In this document: piece after piece, positions 4,901 to 59,732 of the stretch
Layout: each line of letters opens with the position of its first letter
Numbering within the stretch: the stretch's first letter is position 1
Virus record (IMG/VR): IMGVR_UViG_3300045988_088815
Location: 32,001 to 96,000 of that record
Source: a virus
DNA: 64,000 bases
Reading direction: 5' to 3' (one strand)
Notes under the pieces: model-generated
What the model was told of the DNA's origin: nothing
Seen by the model: only the letters and a program-made list of their open reading frames with translations
The model's database searches: none
Made by a program: the position numbers and the translations under genes

Positions 4901-7900
4901 TACCGACATCGCCAAAGCCCTTTCCGATGCAAGAATGGCACAGGAGACCGCAAACGGGAAAATGAAGGTGTTTAGCGTTCAGCCTACGACACCTTATCAG
5001 GTTGGCGATATATGGGTTAATGCCACTTATCCTTCTGACGGCACTACCTACAAGAATGAGGTATTGCGCTGTCAGACCAACAAGGCAGCAGGTTCTCAGT
5101 TCGCCATCGGTGATTGGATTAAAGCATCTAAATACACCGATGATACCGTTGCCAACGCAGCCAAAAAGGCAGCAGAAGATGCTCAGAAGGCGGCACTGAC
5201 CGCACAGACGGACATTAAGAACCTCGGAAAGACGGTCACTGATAATAAGAAGGAATTCGATAATTATGTTACCGATGGCTACCTAGAGCCTTCCGAGATT
5301 GCGGCAATGGCGCAGGATTCTAAGCGACTTGAGGATGATTTTGCGGCTGCACAGAAGTCGTATAATGAGGTGAAGGATGCAGAGGTACTGAAGGACACCA
5401 AGGAACTCACTGACCTCAACACCGCTTTTGCTACCCTCACGAGTGCCAAAACGGAACTCATCAAGTTTCTTTCAGATATATCTAAAAGATACAATGAGAC
5501 TGATACCGACGGCAAGGCTGCTATCGTCTCAGCCGTGGGAACGAAGTTCACCAACTTCCAAAGCGCATATTCTGCCTTCTATGACAAGCTGGGTTTGGCA
5601 AACGCATATATCACTAGGAAGATATATGGTGACTTGAAGCAGAATATCACAGACCTCGCAGGTTACAAGTATCTCAAGGATGCGCTCGGTCAGACTACAG
5701 ATATTGACGGTGGTCTTGTAATGACAACGCTCCTTGCGCTGAGAGACGGAGACGGAAACGTTCAGAGCGGTATCAACGGAGCAATAGACCCAAATAGAGG
5801 AAAGAAGAGTATCGCAACATGGTGGGGCGGTCAGATGGTGGATAAGGACTATAATAGCGGAAATCTTACCCCTGCAACCTCCCTCATCCGCTTCGATGGC
5901 TCTGGCTATCTTGCCAATGGTGCTATCTGGTGGGATGTGAGCGGAAAGGTTCACGCAGACCCGACATCGTTTATCATCAGCGAAAAGAATCTTGGCGCAT
6001 ACCTCATCTTCTTCGAGCCGACTTGGAAGGCAGGAAGTGCAGGAACGAGCGTTGCCGACCTTGTGTCTTTGAAGCCAAACGCACCATTCTCTAAACTTGG
6101 TGTATCGGGCGATGCTACCTTCGAGGGCGCAATCTCCTTCCATGGCATTAAGCTCACGTATGATTCCACAAACAAGGCTATCAAGATTGATGGTAATCTC
6201 TATGCCACAGGCGGTATCACGGCATACGGAGCAGGAGCATCTACCACGGGCGGTGGTGGCGGCTTAAACGGCAGTGTGAAGAGTTATTCAAGTGCCTTGA
6301 AGCTTACATCAGAATCGCTGTCTGAGATAGCTTCTGCCTACTCCATCAAGGCTCTTGATTCTCGTATCTCTAGCCTAGAAGGAGGCTCGGCTATGAACGT
6401 TAGCGTTAGCGGTAGTGGAAACGCAGTGACAGCCATCAGTAAGAGCGGAACGACTATCATCGTGACAAAGGGAACAACGTTTTTGACTTCGCATCAGAGC
6501 CTTGCGAGCTACCTTACTAGGACTGACGCTGCCAGCTTGTATCAGCCAAAGGGAAATTACCTTACCGCACACCAATCGCTCGATGGTTATGTAAATGCAA
6601 TAACAACAAGTGGAAGCGGTAATGCTATCACGTCTGTATCTAAAAGCGGAAAGGGTATTACATTTACTAAAGGTGCTACATTTTTAACTTCTCACCAAAG
6701 TCTTGCTAACTATTATACCAAAAGTAGTGTAGATTCACTTCTTAGTGGTAAGTCGGCAACTAGTCATACACATAGTGTTAAGATTAACGGTGTTACTAAA
6801 ACTATTGCAGCTACTGGTGGAACTGCTGTAGATTTAGGAACTTATCTTACTTCTCATCAAAGTTTAGCAAATTATGTTACTATTAATGATAGTAGACTTA
6901 GTGATAGTCGTTATCCTAAATTTGCTAATAATACTTGGTATTTAGTAGGAGATGACGCTTATATTGGAGACCACAATATTGGTGGTACGTTTTGTATTAA
7001 ATCTGCCAATAATGTCAATGTAAGTGGTATAGCAATATATAATAGTGACGAAACTAAAGTTGCTAAACTATGGTTTGATAATACAAACATAAACCTTGAT
7101 AAACAACTTGTTATGAATAACAAGCGTATTTGGATTCAAGGTGTCGGTACTGCTGGAGGTAATAATAATAGACTTACTCTTGTAGCAGGTATGCCTAGCG
7201 GATTAGCATATAATACTTCATGCCGTGGAACAATTCTTTATTCTAACGGTATAGCATTTGCTGACCCATATAATGGTAATTCAAATAATGATAGTGGATG
7301 GATTAGACATTTAGAAACTTCTGCTAATAGTGGAACTTTAGAAATAGCGGTAGGTGATGATGCTTCAAATGAGCAAATTCATTTTAGATGGTATAATACA
7401 AATTCTAGTGCAGAAACTATAGCACACGATATAACTGTTCCTAGAGCTACAGGTACTTTAGCTTTAACTAGTCAAATACCTACTACTCTTCCTGCAAATG
7501 GAGGTAATGCTGATAAATTAGACGGTTATCATGCTAATGGACTTCTTACTGCTCTATCTAATTCTGATAAGGGAATTAGTATAACAGTTGGTGGAACTAC
7601 CAAAAGTATTTCAAATATTAGTGTTAATTATGCTAGTAGTGCTGGCAATGCTGATACTGTTGATGGTTATCAAGTTAATGGCGGTAATGTTGCACCCTAT
7701 GGACATATACCTAGTATAGAAAACGATGGAGTAATGGAAGTAGGTAAATATATTGACTTTCATAATGATAATAGCGGTAAACATGATTTTTCTACTAGAT
7801 TACAAACTACTGGTAATTATGGAAATTCAGTTTATTTGCCATCGCATAATGGTACATTAGCGTTAATTTCTGATAATGTAGCTTCTGCAACCAAACTTGC

Positions 7901-8861
7901 AACAGCAAGAACTATTTGGGGTCAAAGTTTTGATGGTACTGGTAATGTTAATGGAACTATATATATAAACAATAGTGATTCTGAAAACGGAGCTATAATA
8001 TTAAATAATAATGTAAATGCTAATGCTCGTATATCAGCTATAAAAGACCAAGTAGTATTTAATACTGGTGCTGCTATTCGTTTTGGAGCAGTCGACTGGG
8101 AGTATAGTGATTGGGCTGGTCTTAAATATGATACTGTTGCTAATGCTATATATTTAGGTATAGCCGATGGAACTGTATTTAATTATTATTCTAATAAAAG
8201 AAGTAATGGTACACTTAAATTTCCAGGTATTACAACCATAACTCCTGATAGTGGAGCTAGAATTGGAGGTAGTGGTGGTGATTTATATTTAGGTAATGCT
8301 AATAATAGTAATTGGGTGAAAGTTCAAGATATATGTAGTCATAATGGTTCTAATTATTGGTATATATATCAAAGCGGTAATGCTCATTTTAGTAACATTA
8401 ATGTTGCTGGTACTACTACTATCGGTGGTAATACTACTATCGGTGGTAATTGTCTTGCTAAAGGTGGAGTTACAGCTTATCAATCTTCTGACATCCGCTT
8501 GAAGCAGGATTTGCGGAAGCTGGACTACTTGGGTATCATCAAGGCGATGGGTGGCACTTATGGCTTTGCTTGGAAGAAGGACAATACAAGGTCTATCGGT
8601 TGGATTGCCCAACACGTCTTGTGCAACCCTCACTTAAAGGACATCGTGGAGACGGACGAGAAGGGCTACTACAAGATAAACTACTGGTCTCCGAAGCTGA
8701 TTGCAACGGCATTTGGTGCTATCGAGCAGGTGGGCGATGAGGTCAGCAGGTTGAAGGCTCGGGTGGTCTTCCTCGAATCAGAGGTTCAGCGATTGAGTGG
8801 AGATAAGAAAGACTGCAACAAGAAGAGATTAGATAACAAGAATATTAATTCATTAAATTAG
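1938..8861 (+). CDS. giant tail fibre / receptor-binding protein (2307 aa) with C-terminal intramolecular chaperone (peptidase S74-like) domain
   Basis: Fibre repeats GNADKLDGYHANG and GNADTVDGYQVNG, plus KLATARTIWGQSFDGTGNVNG and a SHTHS His motif. The C-terminus SDIRLKQD...YGFAWKKD...IGWIAQ plus a coiled coil is typical of self-cleaving chaperone domains. Confidence 0.85.
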   Translation: MKTYKNIDIKYYDNDGNIHVRCSVPVTQDALVHYELMQSHYCKLSFKLYKPTYFLLGDFIDTPYGRFELIDLTKAKDNDTIGYSYEIQFDAYYRKFKNKILKYRPNTGSQEATFSLTSKISTHVEVIMKSLAYYAKLDKSYLYDPKFEGEGTDYTYVIDASVDANAAKLITYSNTSVLDAIANIAQTFECEWWFEGNILHFGTCENTNAIVDFRLNDNIVSMSSSQSQSTYANRVYAFGAARNLPSGYKNDADADITKDGVVEKRLMLPTSAECSDKNKQLLAENGFELKNGYIQVGGLHEDQYVEGVTTNDDIYPRNLIKTSNVTSYEKDVEDESTPEEGDYIKRTFYRVNSLTIVNDDGEKTGDMAFRKAYILSGKNLHIVFQSGSLNGMDFECEFNPDGVSEILKDDDGNPILKDGKEQINPKSQVFEIVANEDYGRFLPDTTLHPKDGDTFVLYNWDSTKLGDALVSAASNELLTDSIKNLKKSIIDPTTYTCTAEANYSFNQGRGNLHGVGDRVNLYNKGYDDSYRSSRVIGYEFSLDIPFDGAKYYVGEKPSYSRLNAMESKIEELVYNGQSYLNGNGGSGRSIYIIKSYDSITPTDYNVFSAKAVDEQRLNKTKDDTVKGTITWEKVQKFFSGLHVGNSNNENGGSWTPDAEGRSHLITDYLEVRMKAIFEELVINKTSTIGGKEIISPAGGVVAHKVEEVTVTYNNVSQKAYRCYFLAEQEGDAVDNDFAIGDQVRSESFNVRKGTYHKDGNHFYWRLVIGRDEDPVELEGKKYHYIDLSDTDCATASDVPAKGDVLNQCGNRTDVERQNCLIFSAVDTYSPSISLYHGINSYSFANREYVEYGVNKQNNKAFFNVYGDMYVGDRPTKENGYEGSSYIRYDSSTKQLSVKGKISAKSTVDGKELSQYFNKIAELQNQVDGAIETWFYDGVPTLENAPAISWKTDKDKEIHLGDLYYDNKTGKAYRFAKDSNTYKWTIITDTDIAKALSDARMAQETANGKMKVFSVQPTTPYQVGDIWVNATYPSDGTTYKNEVLRCQTNKAAGSQFAIGDWIKASKYTDDTVANAAKKAAEDAQKAALTAQTDIKNLGKTVTDNKKEFDNYVTDGYLEPSEIAAMAQDSKRLEDDFAAAQKSYNEVKDAEVLKDTKELTDLNTAFATLTSAKTELIKFLSDISKRYNETDTDGKAAIVSAVGTKFTNFQSAYSAFYDKLGLANAYITRKIYGDLKQNITDLAGYKYLKDALGQTTDIDGGLVMTTLLALRDGDGNVQSGINGAIDPNRGKKSIATWWGGQMVDKDYNSGNLTPATSLIRFDGSGYLANGAIWWDVSGKVHADPTSFIISEKNLGAYLIFFEPTWKAGSAGTSVADLVSLKPNAPFSKLGVSGDATFEGAISFHGIKLTYDSTNKAIKIDGNLYATGGITAYGAGASTTGGGGGLNGSVKSYSSALKLTSESLSEIASAYSIKALDSRISSLEGGSAMNVSVSGSGNAVTAISKSGTTIIVTKGTTFLTSHQSLASYLTRTDAASLYQPKGNYLTAHQSLDGYVNAITTSGSGNAITSVSKSGKGITFTKGATFLTSHQSLANYYTKSSVDSLLSGKSATSHTHSVKINGVTKTIAATGGTAVDLGTYLTSHQSLANYVTINDSRLSDSRYPKFANNTWYLVGDDAYIGDHNIGGTFCIKSANNVNVSGIAIYNSDETKVAKLWFDNTNINLDKQLVMNNKRIWIQGVGTAGGNNNRLTLVAGMPSGLAYNTSCRGTILYSNGIAFADPYNGNSNNDSGWIRHLETSANSGTLEIAVGDDASNEQIHFRWYNTNSSAETIAHDITVPRATGTLALTSQIPTTLPANGGNADKLDGYHANGLLTALSNSDKGISITVGGTTKSISNISVNYASSAGNADTVDGYQVNGGNVAPYGHIPSIENDGVMEVGKYIDFHNDNSGKHDFSTRLQTTGNYGNSVYLPSHNGTLALISDNVASATKLATARTIWGQSFDGTGNVNGTIYINNSDSENGAIILNNNVNANARISAIKDQVVFNTGAAIRFGAVDWEYSDWAGLKYDTVANAIYLGIADGTVFNYYSNKRSNGTLKFPGITTITPDSGARIGGSGGDLYLGNANNSNWVKVQDICSHNGSNYWYIYQSGNAHFSNINVAGTTTIGGNTTIGGNCLAKGGVTAYQSSDIRLKQDLRKLDYLGIIKAMGGTYGFAWKKDNTRSIGWIAQHVLCNPHLKDIVETDEKGYYKINYWSPKLIATAFGAIEQVGDEVSRLKARVVFLESEVQRLSGDKKDCNKKRLDNKNINSLN
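6408..6880 (+). repeat. in-frame protein repeats (GSGNAxTxxSKSG...TKGxTFLTSHQSLAxY; four HQSL units) inside the fibre gene
   Basis: TFLTSHQSLASYLT, YLTAHQSLDGYV, TFLTSHQSLANYYT and TYLTSHQSLANYVT read from the translation. Confidence 0.8.
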
Positions 8862-12629: not shown

Positions 12630-13139
12630 TTACATTTTCAAAAAGTCTTCTATATCTATGTACTCAATACCGAAATTCTCCGCACATTGTTTGTCGGAGT
12701 CCGAGAAGTCACCTTCTTTTCCGCTAGCATCACCTATCATTATCAGCTCACTTTTCTTCCAAGAAGAATACGACTCAAGCATTCCTGTATTTGGCTTTCT
12801 CATTTCTATCTCTGCATGCGATGGGCAATACATAGAGTTGACGAAGATATTTCGTCCGGTATGATTGCGAAGATATTTTTGCATAAAGCTTTCAATAGCC
12901 TTAATCTTGCCGATAAAATCCTGTTCGTCAACAAATTGAGGGATGCCTCCTTGGTTTGAGACTATTTCAACATAGTAAAGAGTAGGGAATGCATCTACAA
13001 TCTTATCCAAAACCTCTTTACGGATTTTGAAATCTGTTACATCTGTAGGAAAGGTGTTTCCTGATATAGTTGTAATAATCGTGTCGTCTAAATCAATGAA
13101 TAATACTTTTTTCTTGATTAAATATCCTTTTTCTGTCAT
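12630..13139 (-). CDS. HAD-superfamily phosphatase, polynucleotide 3'-phosphatase / GmhB-like
   Basis: DxDxT motif (FIDLDDTII), SNQGG, RKPNTGML and a GDxxxD-like IGDASGKEGD motif. Confidence 0.7.
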   Translation of the reverse strand: MTEKGYLIKKKVLFIDLDDTIITTISGNTFPTDVTDFKIRKEVLDKIVDAFPTLYYVEIVSNQGGIPQFVDEQDFIGKIKAIESFMQKYLRNHTGRNIFVNSMYCPSHAEIEMRKPNTGMLESYSSWKKSELIMIGDASGKEGDFSDSDKQCAENFGIEYIDIEDFLKM

Positions 13140-25535: not shown

Positions 25536-25664
25536 AGAACATAGTAAGATAAAATTAAGGATAAAGGTAATTGGCCGCATGAGTATTTGAGAAAGAGAAA
25601 AATGTAAAAAGTTTAAAATAAATGGTAGAAACTATATTAAACAATTAAAATACATTAATAATAT

Positions 25665-25775
25665 AAAGAAACACATTAAAACGCTTGCATGTTTCGAATA
25701 TTCTTTGTATCTTTGCATTGCAATTAAGAAATAAAGGTTATTAATTTGAAAAGGTGAGACACACCATAAAAACTG
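25665..25775 (+). promoter_or_regulatory. promoter/leader cassette copy A (upstream element, -7 TATCTTTG at 25708, leader GGTGAGACACACC at 25753)
   Basis: About 110 bp homologous to 31964-32074 and 59611-59723. Confidence 0.7.
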
Positions 25776-25778
25776 GGA

Positions 25779-31911: not shown

Positions 31912-31963
31912 TGTTAACGTCAGTAAATTATCGGTGTTATATGTTATGATATATTAAAGAACA

Positions 31964-32074
31964 AAAGAAACACATTAAAAAGTTTGCATATTTCGGATAT
32001 TCTTTGTATCTTTGCATTGTAATTAAGAAACAAGGTTACTAATTTAAAAAAGGTGAGACACACCACAAAAACTG
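31964..32074 (+). promoter_or_regulatory. promoter/leader cassette copy B (-7 at 32007, leader motif at 32052)
   Basis: The 64-nt core differs from copy C at a single position. Confidence 0.7.
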
Positions 32075-32084
32075 TAAGAAGAAA

Positions 32085-46673: not shown

Positions 46674-46811
46674 CGATTAAATTACGAAAGTAAGAAGAAA
46701 ATATTACTAATAAATGTGAATAAACATGATGGTTTGAATATATTCGTACTAACGAAGGTTAAATATAAGAAGATTTTCATACTTTCTCTTGGTAATATGA
46801 GAAGATATTCG

Positions 46812-46819
46812 TACCTTTG
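46812..46819 (+). promoter_or_regulatory. -7 box TACCTTTG for the rightward operon
   Basis: TACCTTTGCAATGTCTT; 14 nt shared with the hicA promoter. Confidence 0.45.
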
Positions 46820-46908
46820 CAATGTCTTTAAGAGATAAAGGCTTTAAAGTTTAACTATTAATTGCTGTTATGCAGCCGAGTCGGCACTCGTAAAACGGTA
46901 TAGTGATT

Positions 46909-49230: not shown

Positions 49231-49635
49231 ATGAAAGTATTATCTATTCGCCAGCCGTATGCTTGGTTAATCGCTATCGGCTGCAAGACCATTGAAAACA
49301 GAACCTGGAATAGAAAGTTCCGTGGTCGTTTCCTTATTCATGCAAGCCAAGCCAAACCCGAAAAACTTGACGGATGGCAGGAGAGCGCAATGAAGAAATA
49401 TTGCCAAGAGCATGGTATTGTTATTCCAGACTTCAAAGACTTACCAACGTCAGCCATTATCGGCAGTGTAGAATTGGATGATATTCAATTTCATGAGGCT
49501 TATCCGGATGCGTTTGCTGAAGATTTCCAATATCATTGGTTCTTGAAGAATGCTAAATTGTTCGATGAGCCGATTAGAAACGTCAAAGGCAAGTTATTCC
49601 TCTGGGATTATGAGTACAATGAAGCCGAAAAGTAA
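49231..49635 (+). CDS. ASCH-domain protein
   Basis: MKVLSIRQPYAWLIAIGCKTIENRTW...RGRFLIHAS. Confidence 0.7.
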   Translation: MKVLSIRQPYAWLIAIGCKTIENRTWNRKFRGRFLIHASQAKPEKLDGWQESAMKKYCQEHGIVIPDFKDLPTSAIIGSVELDDIQFHEAYPDAFAEDFQYHWFLKNAKLFDEPIRNVKGKLFLWDYEYNEAEK

Positions 49636-49750
49636 AATAACAATACTTATGTAATAAAAATACAAGTCGTTGGAAATTAGCGCAAAAGTGCTTGTGGGTC
49701 TAAGAGGTAAATAAGGAAATAATATAAACATATTGTAAAATATTGAAGTT

Positions 49751-50467
49751 ATGAAGAAGAAATTGATTATTGCCATCATCGCAGCTATCGTTGTGCTAGG
49801 TGGCGGCATTGGTGGCTATGTGTATCATTCTAACCAAGTTAAGGCAGAAAAAATGGCTAATTACAAGAAGGCGTTGTCTGATTATCGCTTCAATAGCAAC
49901 AGATTAATATATTCTTTGGATTTCGTAGTAACGGATTTTATAATCAATTGGAACTCGGCTATAACGAATAAAAAGGCTATGAACACAAAGAACGAAATCG
50001 TTCCTTGCTCCGATTTCGAGGATGCCGTTTCTTTTCGATATGCCTTCTATGATAAGTATGGCGCATATAAGATTTTAGATAGCGTATATGTCTCATTAGG
50101 AAAACATTTGGAAAAGATGCGTGTAAATGCTAATGAAGAACAGCAAAAAATCGTAGAAACCTGTAGTAATGAATACAGGGAGTTGAATAATGCTATTGTT
50201 CTTGTGAAAAAGCCTTATGGCGCATTGGTGCAATATTCTAAACAGAAAGGAGACTTATTCTTTAAACTTTATGCTTTTGATAGCGAATTGGCTAAAGTTT
50301 CTCCATTGGAAGAAGATAAGGGCGATGAGAGAACAAAAGCAATGAATATGGAATTATACGGAACGCATTTGTTTGTTACGGCAGACTTTGACAAAGAACC
50401 GCAAAAGGCAAAAAAGCAAAGTTATACGTTTAGTAACATCACTACAAATTGGATTTATTTAAAATGA
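49751..50467 (+). CDS. membrane-anchored or secreted protein
   Basis: N-terminal KKKLIIAIIAAIVVLGGGIGGYV. Confidence 0.55.
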   Translation: MKKKLIIAIIAAIVVLGGGIGGYVYHSNQVKAEKMANYKKALSDYRFNSNRLIYSLDFVVTDFIINWNSAITNKKAMNTKNEIVPCSDFEDAVSFRYAFYDKYGAYKILDSVYVSLGKHLEKMRVNANEEQQKIVETCSNEYRELNNAIVLVKKPYGALVQYSKQKGDLFFKLYAFDSELAKVSPLEEDKGDERTKAMNMELYGTHLFVTADFDKEPQKAKKQSYTFSNITTNWIYLK

Positions 50468-50520
50468 TGGTTCTATTTTAATATAGCGTAATCTTTAAAA
50501 TAGGTTTCTAAAAGAAAATA

Positions 50521-50585
50521 AAGTTCAAAAGAACAAAGAAATACACTAAATAGTTTGCGTGTTTCAGAAATTATGCTTACCTTTG
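50521..50585 (+). promoter_or_regulatory. promoter of the cassette family (upstream element plus -7 TACCTTTG at 50578) driving a non-coding transcript
   Basis: AAAGAAATACACTAAATAGTTTGCGTGTTTCAGAAAT parallels the upstream halves of cassettes A-C. Confidence 0.55.
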
Positions 50586-50700
50586 CAAACGAAATCAGAA
50601 ATGGTTTTGTAGCTTCAATATTGCATTCTCTACATTAGCGATATTGGTAGCTACGTTTATACATAAGGCAATAGCTTTATAAGCTAGAAGTCATTAAATG

Positions 50701-50800
50701 AAGTGCAGTGTACAACAGAAAAGTGGTGTGAAGTGTAGTGGAGTGCGGTGAAGTCTAGTGTAGTAGGGTAAAGTGCAGTATGGTATAGTACAGTATAGTG
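50701..50800 (+). repeat. 20 phased pentamers, 17 fitting N-R-G-T-N (C-poor)
   Basis: aagtg cagtg tacaa cagaa aagtg gtgtg aagtg tagtg gagtg cggtg aagtc tagtg tagta gggta aagtg cagta tggta tagta cagta tagtg. Confidence 0.8.
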
Positions 50801-50827
50801 AGCCATCCTTCGGGGTGGCTCTTTTTT
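50800..50827 (+). terminator. intrinsic terminator
   Basis: GAGCCATCC-TTCG-GGGTGGCTC followed by TTTTTT. Confidence 0.85.
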
Positions 50828-50890
50828 GTTAACTGTGGTTAATATAACAAAAATGTTACCATGAAATTTGGCTATATAACAAAAAAGTTA

Positions 50891-50898
50891 TATCTTTG
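50891..50898 (+). promoter_or_regulatory. -7 promoter box TATCTTTG for hicAB
   Basis: Exact TAnnTTTG match 33 nt before ATG 50932. Confidence 0.5.
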
Positions 50899-50931
50899 CA
50901 ATGTCTTAAGGACAAAAGAGTTCTTGTAACA

Positions 50932-51114
50932 ATGAAGAAAAGCGAATTGATTAAGAGACTGAGAGAAGCGGGATGCTTCCTGTCTCGACAAGGTTCGGGA
51001 CATGAAAAATGGACTAATCCTAAAACGGGAAAGTCTCAATTCGTGCCAAGACACGCTAGAGAGGTCGCCACAGGCACCGCTCATAGTATTCTAAGAGAAT
51101 TGGTTGGGGAGTAA
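50932..51114 (+). CDS. hicA: HicA mRNA-interferase toxin
   Basis: MKKSELIKRLREAGCFLSRQGSGHEKWTNPKTGKSQFVPRH is the canonical HicA pattern. Confidence 0.85.
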   Translation: MKKSELIKRLREAGCFLSRQGSGHEKWTNPKTGKSQFVPRHAREVATGTAHSILRELVGE

Positions 51115-51183
51115 TCCCCACCTTTCTCTCTTCATTGCTTAAAGGACTCTTTTTTTTTGTTAAGAAGATAAACGAATATATAT

Positions 51184-51582
51184 ATGAAGAAGATTAAAGT
51201 TATTGTAGAACAAGCCAAGGATGGGTCTTTTTGGTGTCATACCGAAGATGGAATAGGTAAGGTTGGCTTAAACTCTTGTGGAGAAACTGTTGCCGCTGCG
51301 AAGCAAGATTTAATGGATTGTTTGGCGTTGGCAAAAGTGGATGCAAAAGAGAATGGAGAAGTGTTTCCTGACGTTGAATTTGAATACAAGTATGACTTGC
51401 AATCTTTCTTTAATTATTTCTCTTTCCTCAATGTGTCAGAGATTGCAAAACGAGCAGGTGTCAATCCTTCATTGATGCGTCAATATAGTAAAGGCATAAA
51501 GCAAGCTGGCGAGAAAACTTATGAACGTTTGGCGCATTGTATGAATGAAATAAAAAAAGATTTGGTAGCCGCTACCTTTTAG
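51184..51582 (+). CDS. hicB: HicB-family antitoxin with C-terminal HTH
   Basis: The N-terminus IVEQAKDGSFWCHTED...GETVAAAKQDLMDCL is HicB-like; C-terminal VSEIAKRAGVNPSLMRQYSKG. Confidence 0.7.
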   Translation: MKKIKVIVEQAKDGSFWCHTEDGIGKVGLNSCGETVAAAKQDLMDCLALAKVDAKENGEVFPDVEFEYKYDLQSFFNYFSFLNVSEIAKRAGVNPSLMRQYSKGIKQAGEKTYERLAHCMNEIKKDLVAATF

Positions 51583-51620
51583 GCGTGTGGCTTCATTGTT
51601 GCAATAGATAAAGAACTCAG

Positions 51621-51654
51621 AGCCTTCTGCATGTGAATGTGGAAGGCTTTTTTG
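51621..51654 (+). terminator. intrinsic terminator after hicB
   Basis: AGCCTTC / GAAGGCT stem followed by TTTTTT. Confidence 0.7.
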
Positions 51655-51760
51655 TGTCTAGACCTTATTTTCTGCACTTAAATCTTTAGTGAAATAGCAC
51701 ACCTTTATTCTTTCGTTATTCCTTTGATTATTAGCTAATTTTGCCAATAAAACATAAAAT

Positions 51761-54700
51761 ATGGCAGAATTAAGATTCGATGTCAAAGCGAATTTCGAGG
51801 AGGTTACGAAACTTCGTTCCGAGTGTGAAAAGTTGAGGGCTGAGTTATTGAAGACCAATAAGTCTACCGACCCAGCTATTGTTGCGGATTTGACGGAAAA
51901 ATATGCGGATGCTAGCAATCGCTTAAAGGACTTGACACAAGCTGCTTCAAGAGCCGCTTACGTGATGTCTTCCGAGTTTAATAAGAAGATGCAAGCAGCC
52001 GCAAGGGAAGTTTATAGCTATGAACTTCAAATGCAAGCTACCAAAGACCGAATAGAGAAAATCCAACAGCAAATCACGAACAAGAGATTAACTCTTGGAG
52101 TTACAACGGATAAGTCATCCATAGATTCTTTACAGAAGAATATTGACTATTTAAAAGGCTCTTTGGCAGGTCAAACAGCTCAGTTGAAGAACTTAGAAGG
52201 GGGTGCTGTCGGTGCTCGTCAGACCTTGGAGAATATGCGGAATGAGTATGTTTTGTATGCAGGTTCAGCAAATCCGGCAAAAGAGGCAACAAATATGTTG
52301 ACCGATAGCATGAGCCAAATGATAGAACGTATGAAGTCAGCTCCGACTGCTGGAGAAGGAATGACTAGTTTGTTCCAAAGAGTTACTGGCGATGCTCACA
52401 TGCTTTCGGCAACATTACTTGGTGGCTTAGGATTTGAACAACTGGCAGGTAGTATCTTTAATACTCGTTCCCAATTCCAGCAACTTGAAATATCTTTCAA
52501 TACCATGCTTGGTAGTGCGGATAAGTCTAAGCAATTGATGGACGAACTTATCCAAACGGCAGCTCATACACCTTTCGATATGTCCAGCATTACGGGTGGC
52601 GCAAAACAACTTTTGGCATACGGAACGGAAGCGAAAGATGTTAACAAAACCCTTGTCCAGCTTGGTGACATTGCTTCGGGCTTGAACATTCCGCTTGGAG
52701 AACTTGTTTATCTTTATGGAACGACCGTTTCGCAAGGAAGAATGTTCACAATGGATTTGCGTCAGTTCATGGGTAGAGGTGTCCCATTAGCAGAAGAATT
52801 GGGTAAAATCTTACACCAAAACACAACGGAGGTTCAAGAGTCTGTTTCCAAGGGTAAAGTGACATCAGACATCTTCAAGGAAGCTATCGCCAACATGACG
52901 CAAGCAGGTGGACGCTTCGGAGGCTTGATGGAGCAACAATCAAAGACATTGGAGGGTCAGTGGAGTAACATTGGCGATTCCATCCAGCAAGCGTTCAACG
53001 AAATCGGCAAAAAATCCGAGGGCGTGTTCTCTAGTGGATTGTCAATTATTTCTGCTATGGTAGAGAATTGGCAAGAGGTAATAAAAGTTATTGGTGTAGC
53101 TACAATAGCTGTTGGTTCTTATCGTGCATCGTTAATGGCGGCTGCTTCTATTCGCAAAGCTGAGGAAGCGCAACAAGCCGATGATATGATGAAGGGAATT
53201 GATGCAGAAATCAAGCGTTTGCAAGACCTAGAGAACTCAAACTACAAGTCGCTGGGTAAGGACAAAAAGCAAGAGCGAGTAAGCAAACAACAAGACTTGG
53301 CAAGTATTGTTGGAGATACTGCTGTGTCCGATGACTTTGTAAAGGCAAGGTTAGATGCAGCCGAGCAAGAGGGCGTTATTTCGGCACAAATGCGTTCCCA
53401 ACTAGAGACGAAACGTGAACTTTTACAGGCTCAGCAACAAGCAACAGCACAAAGCCAGATAGAACTTGATGAAGAAAAAAGAAAGACCGAGGAACTTCGT
53501 CAACAAAAAATAGAGTCTCTTAAAGATGATTTGAAGACTACTACGGAGAAAATATCAAATCTTGATGATAGGGATGTAGAGTTGGCTAGACAATATACAT
53601 CAGCTTTGAATGATTTACAAGATGCCCAAGATGCCTTTGCTGAGGCTCAAAAATTGGTTGAGGAAACTGCTGGTGGCGCAAACTTGGCTTTTGATGCAGA
53701 GGGTAATGCCGTGAATGCGCTAGAAGCAAAAGAACGTTTGGAAACGGCAACAAAACAAGTGAATGCTGCTCAAACAAAGATTTCGACCATTGAAAGCGAA
53801 CGTAAGACGATTGCTCAAACAAAGGAGAATTTAAGTAAGCAACAGGCTACGATACAAAATAATATTAACACTGTTTCTCAAGCTTCCAATACCACTGCAA
53901 AGAAAGCTGGGATATTGGCGACAACAACAGCCACTATCAAAAATGCGCTTTATGCAGCAGGTACAAAATATACGACTACGGTAGTTAATCTTTTTTCTAG
54001 TGCGGTAAGAAGTAGTGGAAATGCCTTGAAGAGTTTATGGGCGGCAATGGCTGCTAATCCGATAGGTGCATTGATAACACTGGGAACAACTTTGTATTCC
54101 GTATTTTCTATGTTTGGAGACGAGACTGAAGAAATTTCGGCAGATACAACACATTTTGGGGAAACAACAAGTTTGACCAGTAAAAAGGTTGAGACATTGA
54201 TGAATGTGTTGAGAAATACGAATGAAAGTACTGATGCACATAAAAAAGCAAAAGATGAACTTATTGGGGTATATGAACAATATGGAATAAAATGCGACAA
54301 TGAAAAGGATAATTTGGAAACGTTGAAAAATAAGCATGACGCTTTTATTGCTTCTTTACAATTAGAAAATGCTGAACGAGAAAAAGCTAACGCTTTGATG
54401 TCTATATCTTCTCAATATGAGGAAGCAAGGAAAAACCTAGATAAGGATTTTTCTGATTCACTAGGTGGTAGTTGGCTTGATTTCGGACAACATATTGATA
54501 AAGAAGACATATCAGCTGTACAGATGATGTTTAATTCACTTGTTTCTGATGATGCGTTGACTAAGATAGACTCTTTAAGGCAGAAAATGGATTCCGCAAA
54601 GAAAGGAACATTGGAATATGCTAATGCCGCACAAGAATACGATGCTGCTCTTCGCAACCTGTTAGTTCCTTTTGAGGAATGGGGTAAGAAGATGGGGTAC

Positions 54701-57700
54701 AATAGTTTCGTGATGGCAAGTTTGCGAAGTTCGATATTAAAGCATATAGATAGTATAAACTCTTTGAATGAAAGTTACAAAAAGGCAGAGGACGCAATAT
54801 ATAAAGGAAGCACAGCGACTGTTGATTGGAATAACTCCCAAGCAAAGGCTCGTTGGATAGTAAACAAGAACAAGCAATCAATCCAAGAATTGGTAGAGCA
54901 AACTGATAATCTTATCAATTTATGGAATAAAGAATATGGGTTGAATTTAAAAATTCATTATGATGATTCGGAAATTCCAAATTGGATGAAATCTATGACA
55001 ACGAAGGAGTTGCGAAATTTAATTTCAAGGAGAGAGGCGGATATTTTACAACAGGAAAATCACGAAAAGAAAACTGGGCATAAGTTGGTAACACGTTCAG
55101 GAGGTAAGTTTAGGTCAAGAACGGAAAACCAAACGGATGTCGCAATGGCGAAATCTATAATTCAATCACGTATACCAAAGAGTAGTACAACAACAAAATC
55201 AAATACAGCCCATACTACTCCAAAGAAAACAGGTACAACGGATGACCCACAAGCAAGAGCGTATGAACGCAAGAAGGCTGAGGAGGACTATTCCAAGTCT
55301 ATTTCATCCTATTCGGAGAAAGCTATCCAAGATATGACCAAGAATCGCATCAATGCGATGAATGAGGGTTATAGCAAGGAATTGGCTCAGATTACCGAGA
55401 ATGCCGACAAGGAGAAAAAAGCGGTAGAAGATGGTATAGACAAATTGGTTGAGGCTAGGAAAAAGCGTGACCAAGCTGTTTGGGTTAATTCCGGCAAGGG
55501 TCGTAAGGCTAATATGTGGAAACAGAGCAAAACCAATGAAGAGTACAAGAATGAGGTTTTGAATGAAACCATGAAGGATAGCAAGGGTAATCCGGTTAAG
55601 GTCAATGGTATGAATATGACCATAGGCATGAGTGTTGCTAATCAGATGAATGCAATTCGCGATAAGGCGGTAAAGCAGAATGAGGATGTGCTTGCTAAAG
55701 AAGCGCAAAGCATGTACGATTATCTGAAGACTTATGGCACATTCCAGGAGCAGAAGTTAGCTATTGCTGCCGATTATGCTAAGAGGATTAGCGAGGTTGA
55801 AAACTCTACGGATTCGGACTCAAGCAAGCAATGGAAGATAAAGTCTTTGAAAGAAGAGCAGAAGAAAGAGACGGATTCGGTTGAGGCTAGTGCTATTATG
55901 CAGAAGATAGACTGGTATCAAGTCTTCGGAAATGTTGGTGGCATTATGAAAGATGCGCTTGTTCCTTTATTGGCAGATCTGGATAAGTTCGTAGGTACGG
56001 ATAAGTTCCAAAATTTGGGTGCAGACCAGCAGAAGAGTATCGTTGATGCTATGCAGAATATCCGTAATTCGATTGGCAATACAAGTGATTTAGGTTGGAA
56101 AGACCTTGCAAGGGATGTTGTTGCTTATCAGGATGCTCTGAAGAATGCGAAAATTGCACAAGAGGAATACACGAAAACGGAAACTTTGCTTATACCTCGT
56201 ATTAAGGTTTTGCAAGAACAGATTGAGAGTGCGAAAAAGTCGGGCAATGTTGCAGAGCAAACAAGGCTACAAGAAGAATTGAATAAAGTTCAAGGTCAGT
56301 TAGCGGAGTCCGGAAAGAAGATTGTTACGGCTAACACAAAAGTTCGTACTAGTGGTCAGAAGTTGGCTCAAACGACACAGAATGTGACACAACCGATTTC
56401 CGCTATCCATGAGTTCCTTTCTACTTCTGGACTATCCGATTTGGCATCTCTTTGGGATAGTTTTGACCAACTTAAAGGTGGAATTGACGGATTGAAAGCT
56501 TTAAAGGAGGCTAAAAATGCGGCTGACGGACTGAAGGATATGGGTAAGGAAGCCGCAGATGCAGCCGCAGCCGCTGGCAAGAAAGCTGGCGATGCGCTAA
56601 GTGAAGGATTGTCAAAAGCCGGACTTATAGGCCAAATTGTTGCTGCCATTTTGAAGATACTTGATGTTTTGAAGGATGGTATCGGAACATTGATTAGCAG
56701 CTTGATTGATACAGTTCTGAATGCGGTCAATGGTATATTGAAGAACATTCTAAGTGGTGAGTTTATCACACAGATAGGAGGGTCTTTGGTAAGCGGTATC
56801 GGTAATATTCTCAATACAATCTCGTTTGGTGGCTTCAATAGTTTGTTTGGAGTAGGTGGAAACGCAAAAGAAGTAAACCGGACTATAGACAAATTGACGG
56901 CTAGGAATGAAATCTTGACGGATGCAATAGACAGATTACGTGACTCTATAGACAAGACTAGTGGTATCAAAGCCGTAGAAGACTCAGAAAAAGCTGAAAA
57001 ACTTCAAAAGGAAAAAGAGCAAAACCTAAAGGACATCATGGTGGCACAAATGGGTTATCATGGCTCTCATGGAAGTTTTAACCGTTATTTCCGAGGATTT
57101 TCGCAAGAGCAAATCAATAAGGTGTCTGAAGCGATAGGTAGACAATGGAATGGAAACCTAAGCGACATACGGTCTGCTGATGAAGCTAATGCGTTGTTGC
57201 AAAATCCTGATATTGTTAACAAGATTCAGAACACTGGTAAGGGAAATTATGGAGGAAGAGTCCTCGAAAAGTTGAAAGATTATGCGGCTGAGGCAGGAAC
57301 ATTAGAGGATATTGCTGATGACCTAGCAGAAAGCTTGACGCAAATATCTTTTGATAGTTTGAAGAGCGAGTTCATAGATACTTTGATGGATATGAATTCC
57401 TCTGCTCAGGACTTCTCTGATAATTTCTCCAAGATGCTTATGCAAGCCGTTCTGAAAGCTAAGGTAGATGATTTGTTGGGTAATGATATGCAAGCATTCT
57501 ATGATGAGTGGACGGAGCGAGCTAAGGCAAATGGTGGCAAATTGTCTCAGACGGATATTAATGAATTGAAGGGAAGGTACGATGAAATGGTTCAAGAAGG
57601 ACTGAAGATTAGAGATGAAGTAGCCGAAATAACTGGTTACAAGCAATCTTACGAGCAGTCTGCGTCTTCCGGTTCTTTTGAATCCATGAGCCAAGATACA

Positions 57701-58024
57701 GGAGAAGAGTTGAATGGTCGTTTTACAGCGGTGCAGATCGCCACAGAGGGAACGTATGAGGAAGCAAAGCTCATAAATACCAAGTTGGATGCTATTGCGG
57801 CTCGTGATGGTGGCGCAGAGGGTAGCTTACTAACAGCTAGCGTGAATACTATTATGGGTAATGTAGGCAATATTTGGTTAGCCGTTGATGAGGGAAGAAC
57901 TATTCTTGCCCAAAGTCTGATGTACTTGCAGTCGATTGATGAGCGACAAGAGCGATGGCATAAGCCTATGTTGCAAGCATTCAATGATATACACGAATTG
58001 AAAGATAAAATGAGTAGATTGTAA
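51761..58024 (+). CDS. tail tape measure protein (2087 aa)
   Basis: The TP901-type core FNTMLGSADKSKQLMDELIQTAAHTPF...AKQLLAYG...LGDIASGL...GRGVPLAEELGKIL, with long coiled coils and three hydrophobic/Gly-rich segments. Confidence 0.85.
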   Translation: MAELRFDVKANFEEVTKLRSECEKLRAELLKTNKSTDPAIVADLTEKYADASNRLKDLTQAASRAAYVMSSEFNKKMQAAAREVYSYELQMQATKDRIEKIQQQITNKRLTLGVTTDKSSIDSLQKNIDYLKGSLAGQTAQLKNLEGGAVGARQTLENMRNEYVLYAGSANPAKEATNMLTDSMSQMIERMKSAPTAGEGMTSLFQRVTGDAHMLSATLLGGLGFEQLAGSIFNTRSQFQQLEISFNTMLGSADKSKQLMDELIQTAAHTPFDMSSITGGAKQLLAYGTEAKDVNKTLVQLGDIASGLNIPLGELVYLYGTTVSQGRMFTMDLRQFMGRGVPLAEELGKILHQNTTEVQESVSKGKVTSDIFKEAIANMTQAGGRFGGLMEQQSKTLEGQWSNIGDSIQQAFNEIGKKSEGVFSSGLSIISAMVENWQEVIKVIGVATIAVGSYRASLMAAASIRKAEEAQQADDMMKGIDAEIKRLQDLENSNYKSLGKDKKQERVSKQQDLASIVGDTAVSDDFVKARLDAAEQEGVISAQMRSQLETKRELLQAQQQATAQSQIELDEEKRKTEELRQQKIESLKDDLKTTTEKISNLDDRDVELARQYTSALNDLQDAQDAFAEAQKLVEETAGGANLAFDAEGNAVNALEAKERLETATKQVNAAQTKISTIESERKTIAQTKENLSKQQATIQNNINTVSQASNTTAKKAGILATTTATIKNALYAAGTKYTTTVVNLFSSAVRSSGNALKSLWAAMAANPIGALITLGTTLYSVFSMFGDETEEISADTTHFGETTSLTSKKVETLMNVLRNTNESTDAHKKAKDELIGVYEQYGIKCDNEKDNLETLKNKHDAFIASLQLENAEREKANALMSISSQYEEARKNLDKDFSDSLGGSWLDFGQHIDKEDISAVQMMFNSLVSDDALTKIDSLRQKMDSAKKGTLEYANAAQEYDAALRNLLVPFEEWGKKMGYNSFVMASLRSSILKHIDSINSLNESYKKAEDAIYKGSTATVDWNNSQAKARWIVNKNKQSIQELVEQTDNLINLWNKEYGLNLKIHYDDSEIPNWMKSMTTKELRNLISRREADILQQENHEKKTGHKLVTRSGGKFRSRTENQTDVAMAKSIIQSRIPKSSTTTKSNTAHTTPKKTGTTDDPQARAYERKKAEEDYSKSISSYSEKAIQDMTKNRINAMNEGYSKELAQITENADKEKKAVEDGIDKLVEARKKRDQAVWVNSGKGRKANMWKQSKTNEEYKNEVLNETMKDSKGNPVKVNGMNMTIGMSVANQMNAIRDKAVKQNEDVLAKEAQSMYDYLKTYGTFQEQKLAIAADYAKRISEVENSTDSDSSKQWKIKSLKEEQKKETDSVEASAIMQKIDWYQVFGNVGGIMKDALVPLLADLDKFVGTDKFQNLGADQQKSIVDAMQNIRNSIGNTSDLGWKDLARDVVAYQDALKNAKIAQEEYTKTETLLIPRIKVLQEQIESAKKSGNVAEQTRLQEELNKVQGQLAESGKKIVTANTKVRTSGQKLAQTTQNVTQPISAIHEFLSTSGLSDLASLWDSFDQLKGGIDGLKALKEAKNAADGLKDMGKEAADAAAAAGKKAGDALSEGLSKAGLIGQIVAAILKILDVLKDGIGTLISSLIDTVLNAVNGILKNILSGEFITQIGGSLVSGIGNILNTISFGGFNSLFGVGGNAKEVNRTIDKLTARNEILTDAIDRLRDSIDKTSGIKAVEDSEKAEKLQKEKEQNLKDIMVAQMGYHGSHGSFNRYFRGFSQEQINKVSEAIGRQWNGNLSDIRSADEANALLQNPDIVNKIQNTGKGNYGGRVLEKLKDYAAEAGTLEDIADDLAESLTQISFDSLKSEFIDTLMDMNSSAQDFSDNFSKMLMQAVLKAKVDDLLGNDMQAFYDEWTERAKANGGKLSQTDINELKGRYDEMVQEGLKIRDEVAEITGYKQSYEQSASSGSFESMSQDTGEELNGRFTAVQIATEGTYEEAKLINTKLDAIAARDGGAEGSLLTASVNTIMGNVGNIWLAVDEGRTILAQSLMYLQSIDERQERWHKPMLQAFNDIHELKDKMSRL

Positions 58025-59576: not shown

Positions 59577-59610
59577 TTTTGAGTCTAAGCGTATAATAAG
59601 CGTTAAAAGA

Positions 59611-59723
59611 TAAAAGAAATACATTAAATAATTTGCACATTTCAAATATTCTTTGTATCTTTGCATTGTAATTAAGAAACAAGGTTACTAATTTTAAAAA
59701 GGTGAGACACACCTTAAAAACTG
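59611..59723 (+). promoter_or_regulatory. promoter/leader cassette copy C (-7 at 59656, leader motif at 59701)
   Basis: Near-identical to copy B across the -7 box, spacer and GGTGAGACACACC. Confidence 0.7.
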
Positions 59724-59732
59724 TGATTCGTT

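Follow-up and report, generated by a model that had tools for sequence, protein, structure and literature searches.

The window analysed here, a 64,000-nt stretch of viral DNA (positions 32,001 to 96,000 of the IMG/VR record IMGVR_UViG_3300045988_088815), carries a tract of 20 phased pentamers upstream of a hicAB gene pair. We consider it highly likely that this tract encodes a vrRNA, as the guide RNAs of VIPR (Viral Interference Programmable Repeat) systems are called, and that it belongs to a clade with an A-G-U triplet (repeat Y-NN-A-G) instead of G-G-Y. Such an RNA belongs to a kind that is already known, VIPR having just been described; the cassette in the window differs in its AGU triplet, its 20 units, the plain terminator that forms its tail, a predicted target in a structural gene and, above all, in being a guide-only cassette.

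VIPR was introduced in two preprints from the Doudna laboratory in 2026 (bioRxiv 10.64898/2026.04.26.720920 and 10.64898/2026.04.26.720927). The phages concerned encode Vipr, an ancestral RAMP of ~20 kDa with an RRM core, a G-loop and a thumb, together with the accessory gene vap and vrRNAs; the latter consist of 9-16 YNNGG pentamers with a conserved GGY 'or a related consensus', hypervariable NN dinucleotides and an invariant structured tail (10.64898/2026.04.26.720920). One Vipr protomer is bound per repeat according to the structure paper (10.64898/2026.04.26.720927), and the NN, with the conserved triplet flipped out, pair with double-stranded DNA at one skipped base per unit, resulting in transcriptional repression (both preprints). 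Natural targets are mostly coding, with the skipped base at the wobble position, and lie in competing phages or satellites, while no self-target with at least 80% NN match was reported (10.64898/2026.04.26.720920). The same paper classifies VIPR into seven types, I-VII, and its methods name NNNGG, YNNNG and NNNNG as alternative repeat classes.

The pentamer tract and its predicted target

Read in the register NN + (A/G)GT, the variable dinucleotides of the tract are GA GC GT AC AA GG GA GT GG GC GA CT GT AG AA GC AT AT AC AT. The consensus of the pentamer is NN-A-G-T, with A16/G3, G19 and T18 in the three conserved columns; 17 of the 20 units are canonical, and the constant triplet is degenerate in the other three (ACA, AGA, TGT). 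An earlier note on this DNA, made from the letters alone, had described a C-poor run of pentamers of the form N-R-G-T-N, and recounting over 50701-50800 gave the same seven C, 17 of 20 fitting pentamers and, among these, 14 NAGTN units. When both strands of the 64 kb were scanned with a sliding 100-nt frame, seven or more phased RGT triplets were found in this tract only, the maximum elsewhere being ~6 of 20 on the plus strand and 4 on the minus strand. The tract is genuine, far from random and without a counterpart elsewhere in the 64 kb. Tandem Repeats Finder reports it with periods of 5, 10, 15 and 20.

The tract does not look coding. Its plus strand is full of TAG stops, and a 40-aa open reading frame (ORF) on the minus strand (50684-50806) is a by-product of the 5-nt repeat. 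Together with a 27-aa ORF starting with TTG on the plus strand (50555-50638), which does not look coding either, it corrects the statement that no ORF here exceeds 17 codons. The broader description of a non-coding unit running from promoter to terminator upstream of hicAB was confirmed.

The target code was applied by scanning the NN string over ~1.5 Mb of collected sequence, skipping zero, one or two bases per unit and using the threshold of the VIPR paper, a match of at least 80% of the NN positions without gaps. The last 16 units of the guide matched 27-28 of 32 positions at a skip of one, compared with 21-22 of 32 at a skip of zero or two and 21-23 of 32 when the order of the units was shuffled (20 shuffles). 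Over all 20 units, the tape-measure gene of the related locus L017 matched at 36 of 40 positions (90%), in frame and with the skip at the wobble base, and the first 13 units matched it perfectly (26/26). The same 36/40 match is present in the tape-measure genes of L161, L162, L163 and L164, and the corresponding site in L015 matches at 34/40. The L017 site contains GAG GCT GTA ACG AAA GGT GAA GTC GGT GCA GAT CTT GTG, and the peptide encoded at the target site is EAVTKGEVGADLVKEAIVKM. Even the units with degenerate triplets (GT-ACA, AC-AGA, GG-TGT) have dinucleotides that match the target.

The exact 13-unit pattern occurs in 5 of 2.9 million IMG/VR contigs, always at this tape-measure site, where by our own estimate ~1e-5 occurrences would be expected by chance. 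Where the sequence covers the cassette site, this lies ~2 kb 5' of the target. Variation in the guide follows variation in the target: a single-nucleotide polymorphism at unit 12 (CT to TT), found in L010, L012, L019, L031 and L037, matches the TT of the L015-type target. The homologous site in the window's own tape-measure gene has diverged to 67.5% NN match, which is under the 80% threshold, so no self-targeting is predicted in the window; the best match of the last 16 units at a skip of one anywhere in the window is 21/32.

The targeting appears to be reciprocal. By the same 1-nt-skip rule, the 5' region of the window's tape-measure gene has five plus-strand sites that are matched by guides from VIPR-positive relatives (Table 1), and the 5' part of this gene appears to be a contested target among these closely related phages. 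The guides that match these five sites, within 51688-52758, come from five different relatives. For a family-wide comparison, 36 distinct guides of at least 12 units each were assembled; 23 of the 36 have a match of at least 80% of NN in another collected sequence, while a match in the own locus was found for 1 of 32. A simpler rule with two alleles, in which the guides of phages with an A-type tape-measure gene would hit only the B type and vice versa, proved too coarse and was replaced by the comparison of self and non-self locus by locus.

Variants in relatives, the protein partner and the apparent guide-only state

Conservation of the repeat phase among relatives, on which the earlier note had staked its prediction, was found. 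The tail hairpin occurs in 47 IMG/VR contigs, and 5' of it stand six clearly different versions of a (NN-AGT)n tract that all keep the A-G-T. Across the six versions, the A, G and T columns carry 1.15, 1.83 and 1.18 bits of information, compared with 0.28 and 0.16 bits for the NN columns. The window-type cassette itself is near-identical in ~30 IMG/VR contigs, apart from an indel of two units (10 nt, AAAGT ATAGT) which separates versions of 20 and 22 units; the window has the shorter form, the one with 22 units being commoner. Two GenBank contigs from one faecal virome, MT835610 and MT835576, terminate within the tract, at positions corresponding to 50777-50785 of the window, and the repeat together with the indel polymorphism is the probable cause of these contig breaks.

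When IMG/VR was scanned blind for nine RGT units in phase, more than 117 contigs were returned. The matches listed comprise trivial microsatellites and many diverse phage contigs with imperfect tracts of (NNGGT)n or (NNAGT)n, frequently arranged as long arrays. Long (NNGGT)n arrays were seen in the environmental contigs L061, L065, L070, L077, L082, L085, L133 and L134, among others, where they are delimited by GGCTAATGGGT, GGCAGTT or AATGGTTTAATGAATTTAAT and adjoin homologues of a 190-aa RAMP described below; they are probably multi-vrRNA VIPR arrays of other types.

All cassettes of this family occupy one hotspot with the gene order ASCH gene, gene of a 238-aa membrane protein, cassette, hicA, hicB and tape measure, and the hicAB pair persists regardless of the cassette upstream of it. 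Between the common promoter and the common tail, L015 and 13 further contigs have a longer cassette, in which a 190-aa gene and, after it, a 156-aa gene are each followed by a tract. A jackhmmer search started from the 190-aa protein found homologues beside pentamer tracts in 50 loci. About 25 of these had been retrieved solely by their DNA repeat pattern, so that the association of tract and protein does not depend on the route by which the loci were found.

The 190-aa protein matches no Pfam family and belongs to phrog_4652, a group whose function is not known. An AlphaFold2 model of a protein 96% identical to it (pLDDT 92.5, pTM 0.84) was compared with the PDB, and every match listed was a chain from a CRISPR effector complex of type III (Csm or Cmr) or type VII, among them a crystal structure of Csm3; the best match had E = 4.7e-6, a probability of 1.0 and a TM score of ~0.5. 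The 190-aa protein is, as judged from this model, a Cas7-like RAMP.

A further RNA element accompanies the tracts of the VIPR-positive relatives. A tRNA-like minihelix stands 3' of each vrRNA tract, and in L015 another one precedes it (7890-7935 and 8038-8087); further copies are present in L064, L066, L088, L103, L111, L129, L144, L173, L203 and L206. The element is built from a 7-bp acceptor-like stem, a linker of 11-12 nt with an invariant UGG, and a 6-bp T-arm with the loop UUCGAUU, and across 12 diverse copies compensatory changes occur in 12 of the 13 pairs. Neither ARAGORN nor Rfam calls these minihelices, and the word 'tRNA' is absent from the VIPR paper 10.64898/2026.04.26.720920. They could be processing signals for RNase P or RNase Z, or protectors of the 3' end.

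In the window, by contrast with VIPR loci, no gene for the protein partner was detected. Homologues of vipr and vap were found neither by tblastn nor with a hidden Markov model of 50 sequences run without filters (--max; best E = 0.89), and hhalign against 93 ORFs of the window gave a best probability of 3.1%. The GenBank contigs MT835636 and MT835576, which share 91-99% identity with the window in their overlaps and add 16.4 kb upstream and 16.3 kb downstream, contain no vipr or vap in these 32.7 kb of flanks, and neither do IMG/VR relatives in up to 12 kb beyond the end of the window. No contig rejoins the start of the window within 12 kb of its end, and there is no overlap between the two GenBank contigs of the flanks; the genome is thus larger than 96.7 kb and unclosed. 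Neither vipr nor vap was detected in the ~97 kb sampled, and they are likely to be absent from the phage. The protein would then have to be supplied in trans by a VIPR-positive relative, either co-infecting or resident, unless the unsampled part of the genome encodes it.

The guide-only state is not limited to the window type. A second solo cassette (L021, L048, L161 at 7237-7600, and L162) has a promoter and tail of the window type, but its leader differs and its guide has 20-23 units; again no vipr or vap was found in 7.5 kb upstream. The best match of this guide is the vipr gene of VIPR-positive phages (region TKAI..LTSKRKKT) with 30-31 of 40 positions against 26-27 for shuffles, which is suggestive but remains under 80%; an exact-pattern scan for a target of the L161-type guide gave 0 matches.

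Features flanking the tract

The coordinates of the cassette and of the tape-measure sites are collected in Table 1. The promoter has its -7 box where the earlier note had placed it, and transcription would start near 50592. The promoter block is ~93% identical to the block 5' of the vipr gene in L015; the homology between the two loci ends at 50607 and restarts at the tail. Between these points the window has a leader without homology to VIPR-positive loci, which is probably removed or dispensable. Its 5' hairpin (50609-50654), which had also been predicted, folds stably (-18.9 kcal/mol, z = -4.4). This cassette-specific leader of 93 nt and its stable hairpin mean that the cassette did not arise from a VIPR locus by simple deletion.

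Table 1. Position of the cassette elements and of sites in the tape-measure gene, in coordinates of the window
Feature	Position	Strand	Details
Promoter block	50480-50607	+	Bacteroidota-type; -33 TTTG at 50554-50557, -7 TACCTTTG at 50578-50585
5' leader	50608-50699	+	window-type solo cassette only; hairpins at 50609-50654 and, a small one, near 50672-50688
vrRNA guide tract (probable)	50700-50799	+	20 pentamer units, register NN + (A/G)GT
Invariant 3' tail, intrinsic terminator	50800-50827	+	GAGCCATCC-UUCG-GGGUGGCUC followed by U6
Tape-measure gene	51761-58024		phrog_9959, E = 1.7e-134
Site matched by relatives' guide	51688-51740	+	NN match 29/36
Site matched by relatives' guide	51758-51807	+	NN match 31/32
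Site matched by relatives' guide	51983-52032	+	NN match 33/34
Site matched by relatives' guide	52418-52455	+	NN match 21/26
Site matched by relatives' guide	52718-52758	+	NN match 26/28
Window's own site homologous to the target	52838-52897	+	NN match 27/40, diverged

For the tail, the terminator scan and the folding agree on the strong UUCG terminator with its T-run. The scan detects GAGCCATCC-TTCG-GGGTGGCTC followed by T6, and the hairpin of 9 bp with a UUCG loop (50800-50821) has a folding energy of -17 kcal/mol (z = -4.9). The identical hairpin follows six different guide versions in IMG/VR, including vrRNA2 of the VIPR-positive loci. A search of the representative genomes of GTDB with the terminator-hairpin pattern gave 20 matches, all of them unrelated generic terminators without tracts, and thus neither a prophage copy nor a host. 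The Rfam check suggested in the earlier note brought no family: Rfam 15 has no match in 49500-52000 at E values up to 10, with two noise hits elsewhere only, and the homologous locus of L015 gave none either. With ARAGORN, no tRNA or tmRNA was detected in the window, nor in any of 10 relatives.

Downstream of the cassette follow HicA (PF07927, E = 4e-12), a HicB-sized gene and the 2087-aa tape-measure gene; as had been stated before, hicA has a promoter and a HicB partner of its own. Elsewhere in the window, a block of 122 nt with the promoter TTG...TAnnTTTGCA occurs three times with 83-90% identity (25655-25776, 31954-32075 and 59603-59724); these are the 'cassettes A-C' of the earlier note. 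Shorter copies of the block (46789-46838 and 50868-50917) precede other small cassettes, including hicA. A block of minus-strand genes contains a protein with a polynucleotide kinase 3'-phosphatase domain (12630-13139, minus strand; PF08645, E = 3.5e-21), which may have a function in the repair of RNA or DNA ends that is relevant to tRNA-targeting defences. No integrase was found by Pfam in this block (12.6-18.2 kb). The phage family, with genomes of ~100 kb, is widespread in the human gut, and we infer a host among the Bacteroidota.

Proposed function, alternatives and relation to known systems

In the proposed mechanism, the Bacteroidota-type promoter would give rise to a transcript of ~236 nt ending at the UUCG hairpin. 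Vipr, a Cas7-like RAMP of ~20 kDa, would polymerise on the 20 pentamers with one protomer on each, every protomer sequestering an AGU triplet and exposing the adjacent NN. The 20 dinucleotides would then pair with double-stranded DNA while every third base is skipped. The predicted target is the site described above in the 5' part of the tape-measure gene carried by competing relatives, which is read in frame with the wobble base skipped. Binding there would repress the gene, and the diverged site of the window phage itself should escape. The Vipr would be supplied in trans by a rival and would load the guide of the window. The AGU consensus and the tail, both of which are common to the window RNA and vrRNA2 of the L015-type loci, suggest that a foreign Vipr would accept it. 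The earlier note's idea that the RNA could wrap or titrate an oligomeric RNA-binding protein survives in its first half: the pentamers would set the register, with one Vipr protomer per pentamer (10.64898/2026.04.26.720927). The RNA does not, however, look like a mere titrating sponge, since its NN spell an in-frame site in the tape-measure gene of rival phages.

Several observations speak against the assignment as a vrRNA or limit it. The consensus triplet is AGU and not GGY; the unit U-NN-A-G falls in the YNNNG class and lacks the canonical GGY. Perturbation of the GGY abolished silencing in SUSP1, and GGY to AGY was among the substitutions tested (10.64898/2026.04.26.720920), so that compatibility would rest on the cognate Vipr predicted for this clade. 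The guide has 20 units, or 22 in the commoner variant, compared with the 9-16 reported, although all 20 NN take part in the match with the target. The best natural target has four mismatches, which all lie in the tail-proximal third, and exact-pattern scans for a better target of the 3' half found 0 in IMG/VR and 0 in the JGI metagenomes. A related guide of 22 units in L005 stands beside a tape-measure site that it matches at 84%. L005 (IMGVR_UViG_3300029718_000164) is the sole apparent self-match among the 32 guides; it may be tolerable if there is no Vipr in cis, or the assembly may be a chimera. Transcription, processing and protein binding of the window RNA are predictions. Finally, the guide may be inert without a vipr gene in cis, and it is possible that such a gene is located elsewhere in the >96.7-kb genome or encodes a RAMP too divergent for the searches.

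Other readings of the tract fit the data less well. The earlier note had compared it with the leader RNA of the Bacillus trp operon, which is bound by TRAP, and with the repeat RNA antitoxins of type III toxin-antitoxin systems, here controlling hicA. The 15 NAG triplets at a period of 5 nt, a spacing that fits TRAP, and the position of the tract immediately upstream of a toxin gene agree with these comparisons, but we regard them as scarcely credible. The first base of the triplet is unconstrained (T7, A5, C5, G3), so that only about half of the NAG triplets start with G or U; the information that matches a coding target is carried by the variable bases and not by the NAG; and the partner in the relatives is a Cas7-like RAMP and not TRAP. 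For a type III antitoxin the period of 5 nt is far from ~36 nt, the toxin HicA has its own promoter and HicB partner, the hicAB pair persists under any upstream cassette, and Rfam has no match. Equally far-fetched is a feature acting at the level of the DNA without a role of the RNA, such as a microsatellite, an iteron array or a packaging site. The polymorphic unit number (20 or 22) and the two GenBank contigs that end in the tract could be taken in this sense, but the repeat, with its indel polymorphism, accounts for the contig breaks. The units are moreover not identical copies, having near-random NN beside fixed triplets; promoter and terminator bracket the tract on one strand, and the NN encode a gapped match to a gene elsewhere. 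An improbable, but less extreme, explanation is a non-functional relic, that is a VIPR locus which has lost vipr and vap and whose inert guide is decaying. It would account for the absence of the two genes, the three units with degenerate triplets, the two units missing relative to the commoner version and the four mismatches in the best target. A decaying guide would, however, hardly be near-identical in ~30 contigs behind an intact, conserved promoter and tail, nor would the NN of its degenerate units still match the target or its NN variation track a codon variant of the target. The leader of its own, which does not fit a simple deletion, and the existence of a second solo type also argue against decay.

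A narrower version of the vrRNA reading, and not an alternative to it, is that the solo RNA acts mainly as an anti-VIPR decoy or hijacker. It would load the Vipr of an attacking relative, dilute the complexes aimed at the tape-measure gene of the window phage and redirect the effector of the rival onto the rival's own gene. We regard this as conceivable, with less than even prospects. It is in line with the five sites at which relatives' guides match the window's tape-measure gene (up to 33/34), and with the finding that the phages shown or deduced to have a compatible Vipr carry the matched allele (L015 with 34/40; L017, whose VIPR-positive state is deduced from its tract, with 36/40). There is also a second, independent solo cassette of the L021/L161 type whose guide best matches vipr (30-31/40), and with one protomer per repeat an RNA of 20 units would sequester many protomers. 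The argument is nevertheless purely inferential: the match of the second solo guide to vipr is below 80% and has no exact target, and the target phages L161 and L162 are themselves solo, with no Vipr in 7.5 kb upstream. Somewhat more doubtful still is the general statement that solo vrRNAs are guide-only weapons, which turn the Vipr of a rival on its tape-measure gene, or on vipr in the second type, and at the same time titrate complexes aimed at the solo phage.

If the vrRNA assignment is correct, VIPR, which was not described until 2026 and has been studied experimentally in systems from Escherichia and Pseudomonas, extends to ~100-kb phages of the human gut with hosts that are probably Bacteroidota, and includes a clade in which the consensus is AGU, the guides are longer and the tails differ. 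Blind application of the 1-nt-skip code yields in-frame targets in rivals and not in self, which is an independent check of the code. Guide-only cassettes raise the question of whether guides are used or abused in trans, which bears on the countering and the evolution of RNA-guided systems. For engineering, a Vipr compatible with AGU repeats would provide an orthogonal DNA-binding protein that can be programmed. The hijacking of a rival's effector, if true, would be the first case in nature of a guide RNA taking over a VIPR effector and, within a three-way arms race over one structural gene, a counter-defence made of RNA alone.

Among known systems, the closest are the type II vrRNAs of Escherichia phage SUSP1 and of a Pseudomonas fulva prophage. 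Like them, the window cassette has tandem pentamers that combine a conserved triplet with hypervariable NN, a structured 3' tail that does not vary, a location on a phage, and natural targets that are read with a 1-nt skip at the wobble base, lie in competing relatives and exclude self; in the relatives of the window, a small Cas7-like RAMP and an accessory gene adjoin the tracts. It differs in its triplet (AGU, YNNNG class, instead of GGY) and in its 20 units instead of 9-16. Its tail is a plain terminator hairpin, that of its relatives a tRNA-like minihelix, and neither is a pseudoknot or a hammerhead. The window further lacks vipr and vap in cis, its predicted target is structural (the tape measure) and not a regulator or a satellite, and the presumed host is a Bacteroidota of the human gut.

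The filaments of crRNA and Cas7 in Class 1 CRISPR systems are comparable in that a RAMP polymerises at a fixed nucleotide period, with bases flipped at regular intervals, and that a variable guide is followed by a constant handle. There the period is 6 nt with one base flipped; in the VIPR-type RNA considered here it would be 5 nt with three bases sequestered, and the target would be read with gaps. The clade of the window has no repeat-spacer array, Cas6 processing site, adaptation genes or nuclease. The trp leader of Bacillus and TRAP share with the window RNA the NAG triplets at a period of ~5 nt, an unstructured C-poor RNA and an oligomeric protein, but TRAP is an 11-mer ring and not a helical RAMP filament, and the information here would lie in the spacers and serve DNA targeting instead of attenuation. 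Type III toxin-antitoxin systems (ToxIN-like) combine repeats of ~34-36 nt with ToxN, whereas the window has a period of 5 nt and HicA. For the guide-only state the nearest parallel is offered by orphan CRISPR mini-arrays and solitary repeat units carried by viruses, the RNA anti-CRISPRs, in which the mobile element carries the RNA part only and either needs an effector encoded elsewhere or interferes with it, and which serve conflicts between related viruses. The window cassette would use a different effector family and a different code, and its loading or inhibition in trans is hypothetical.

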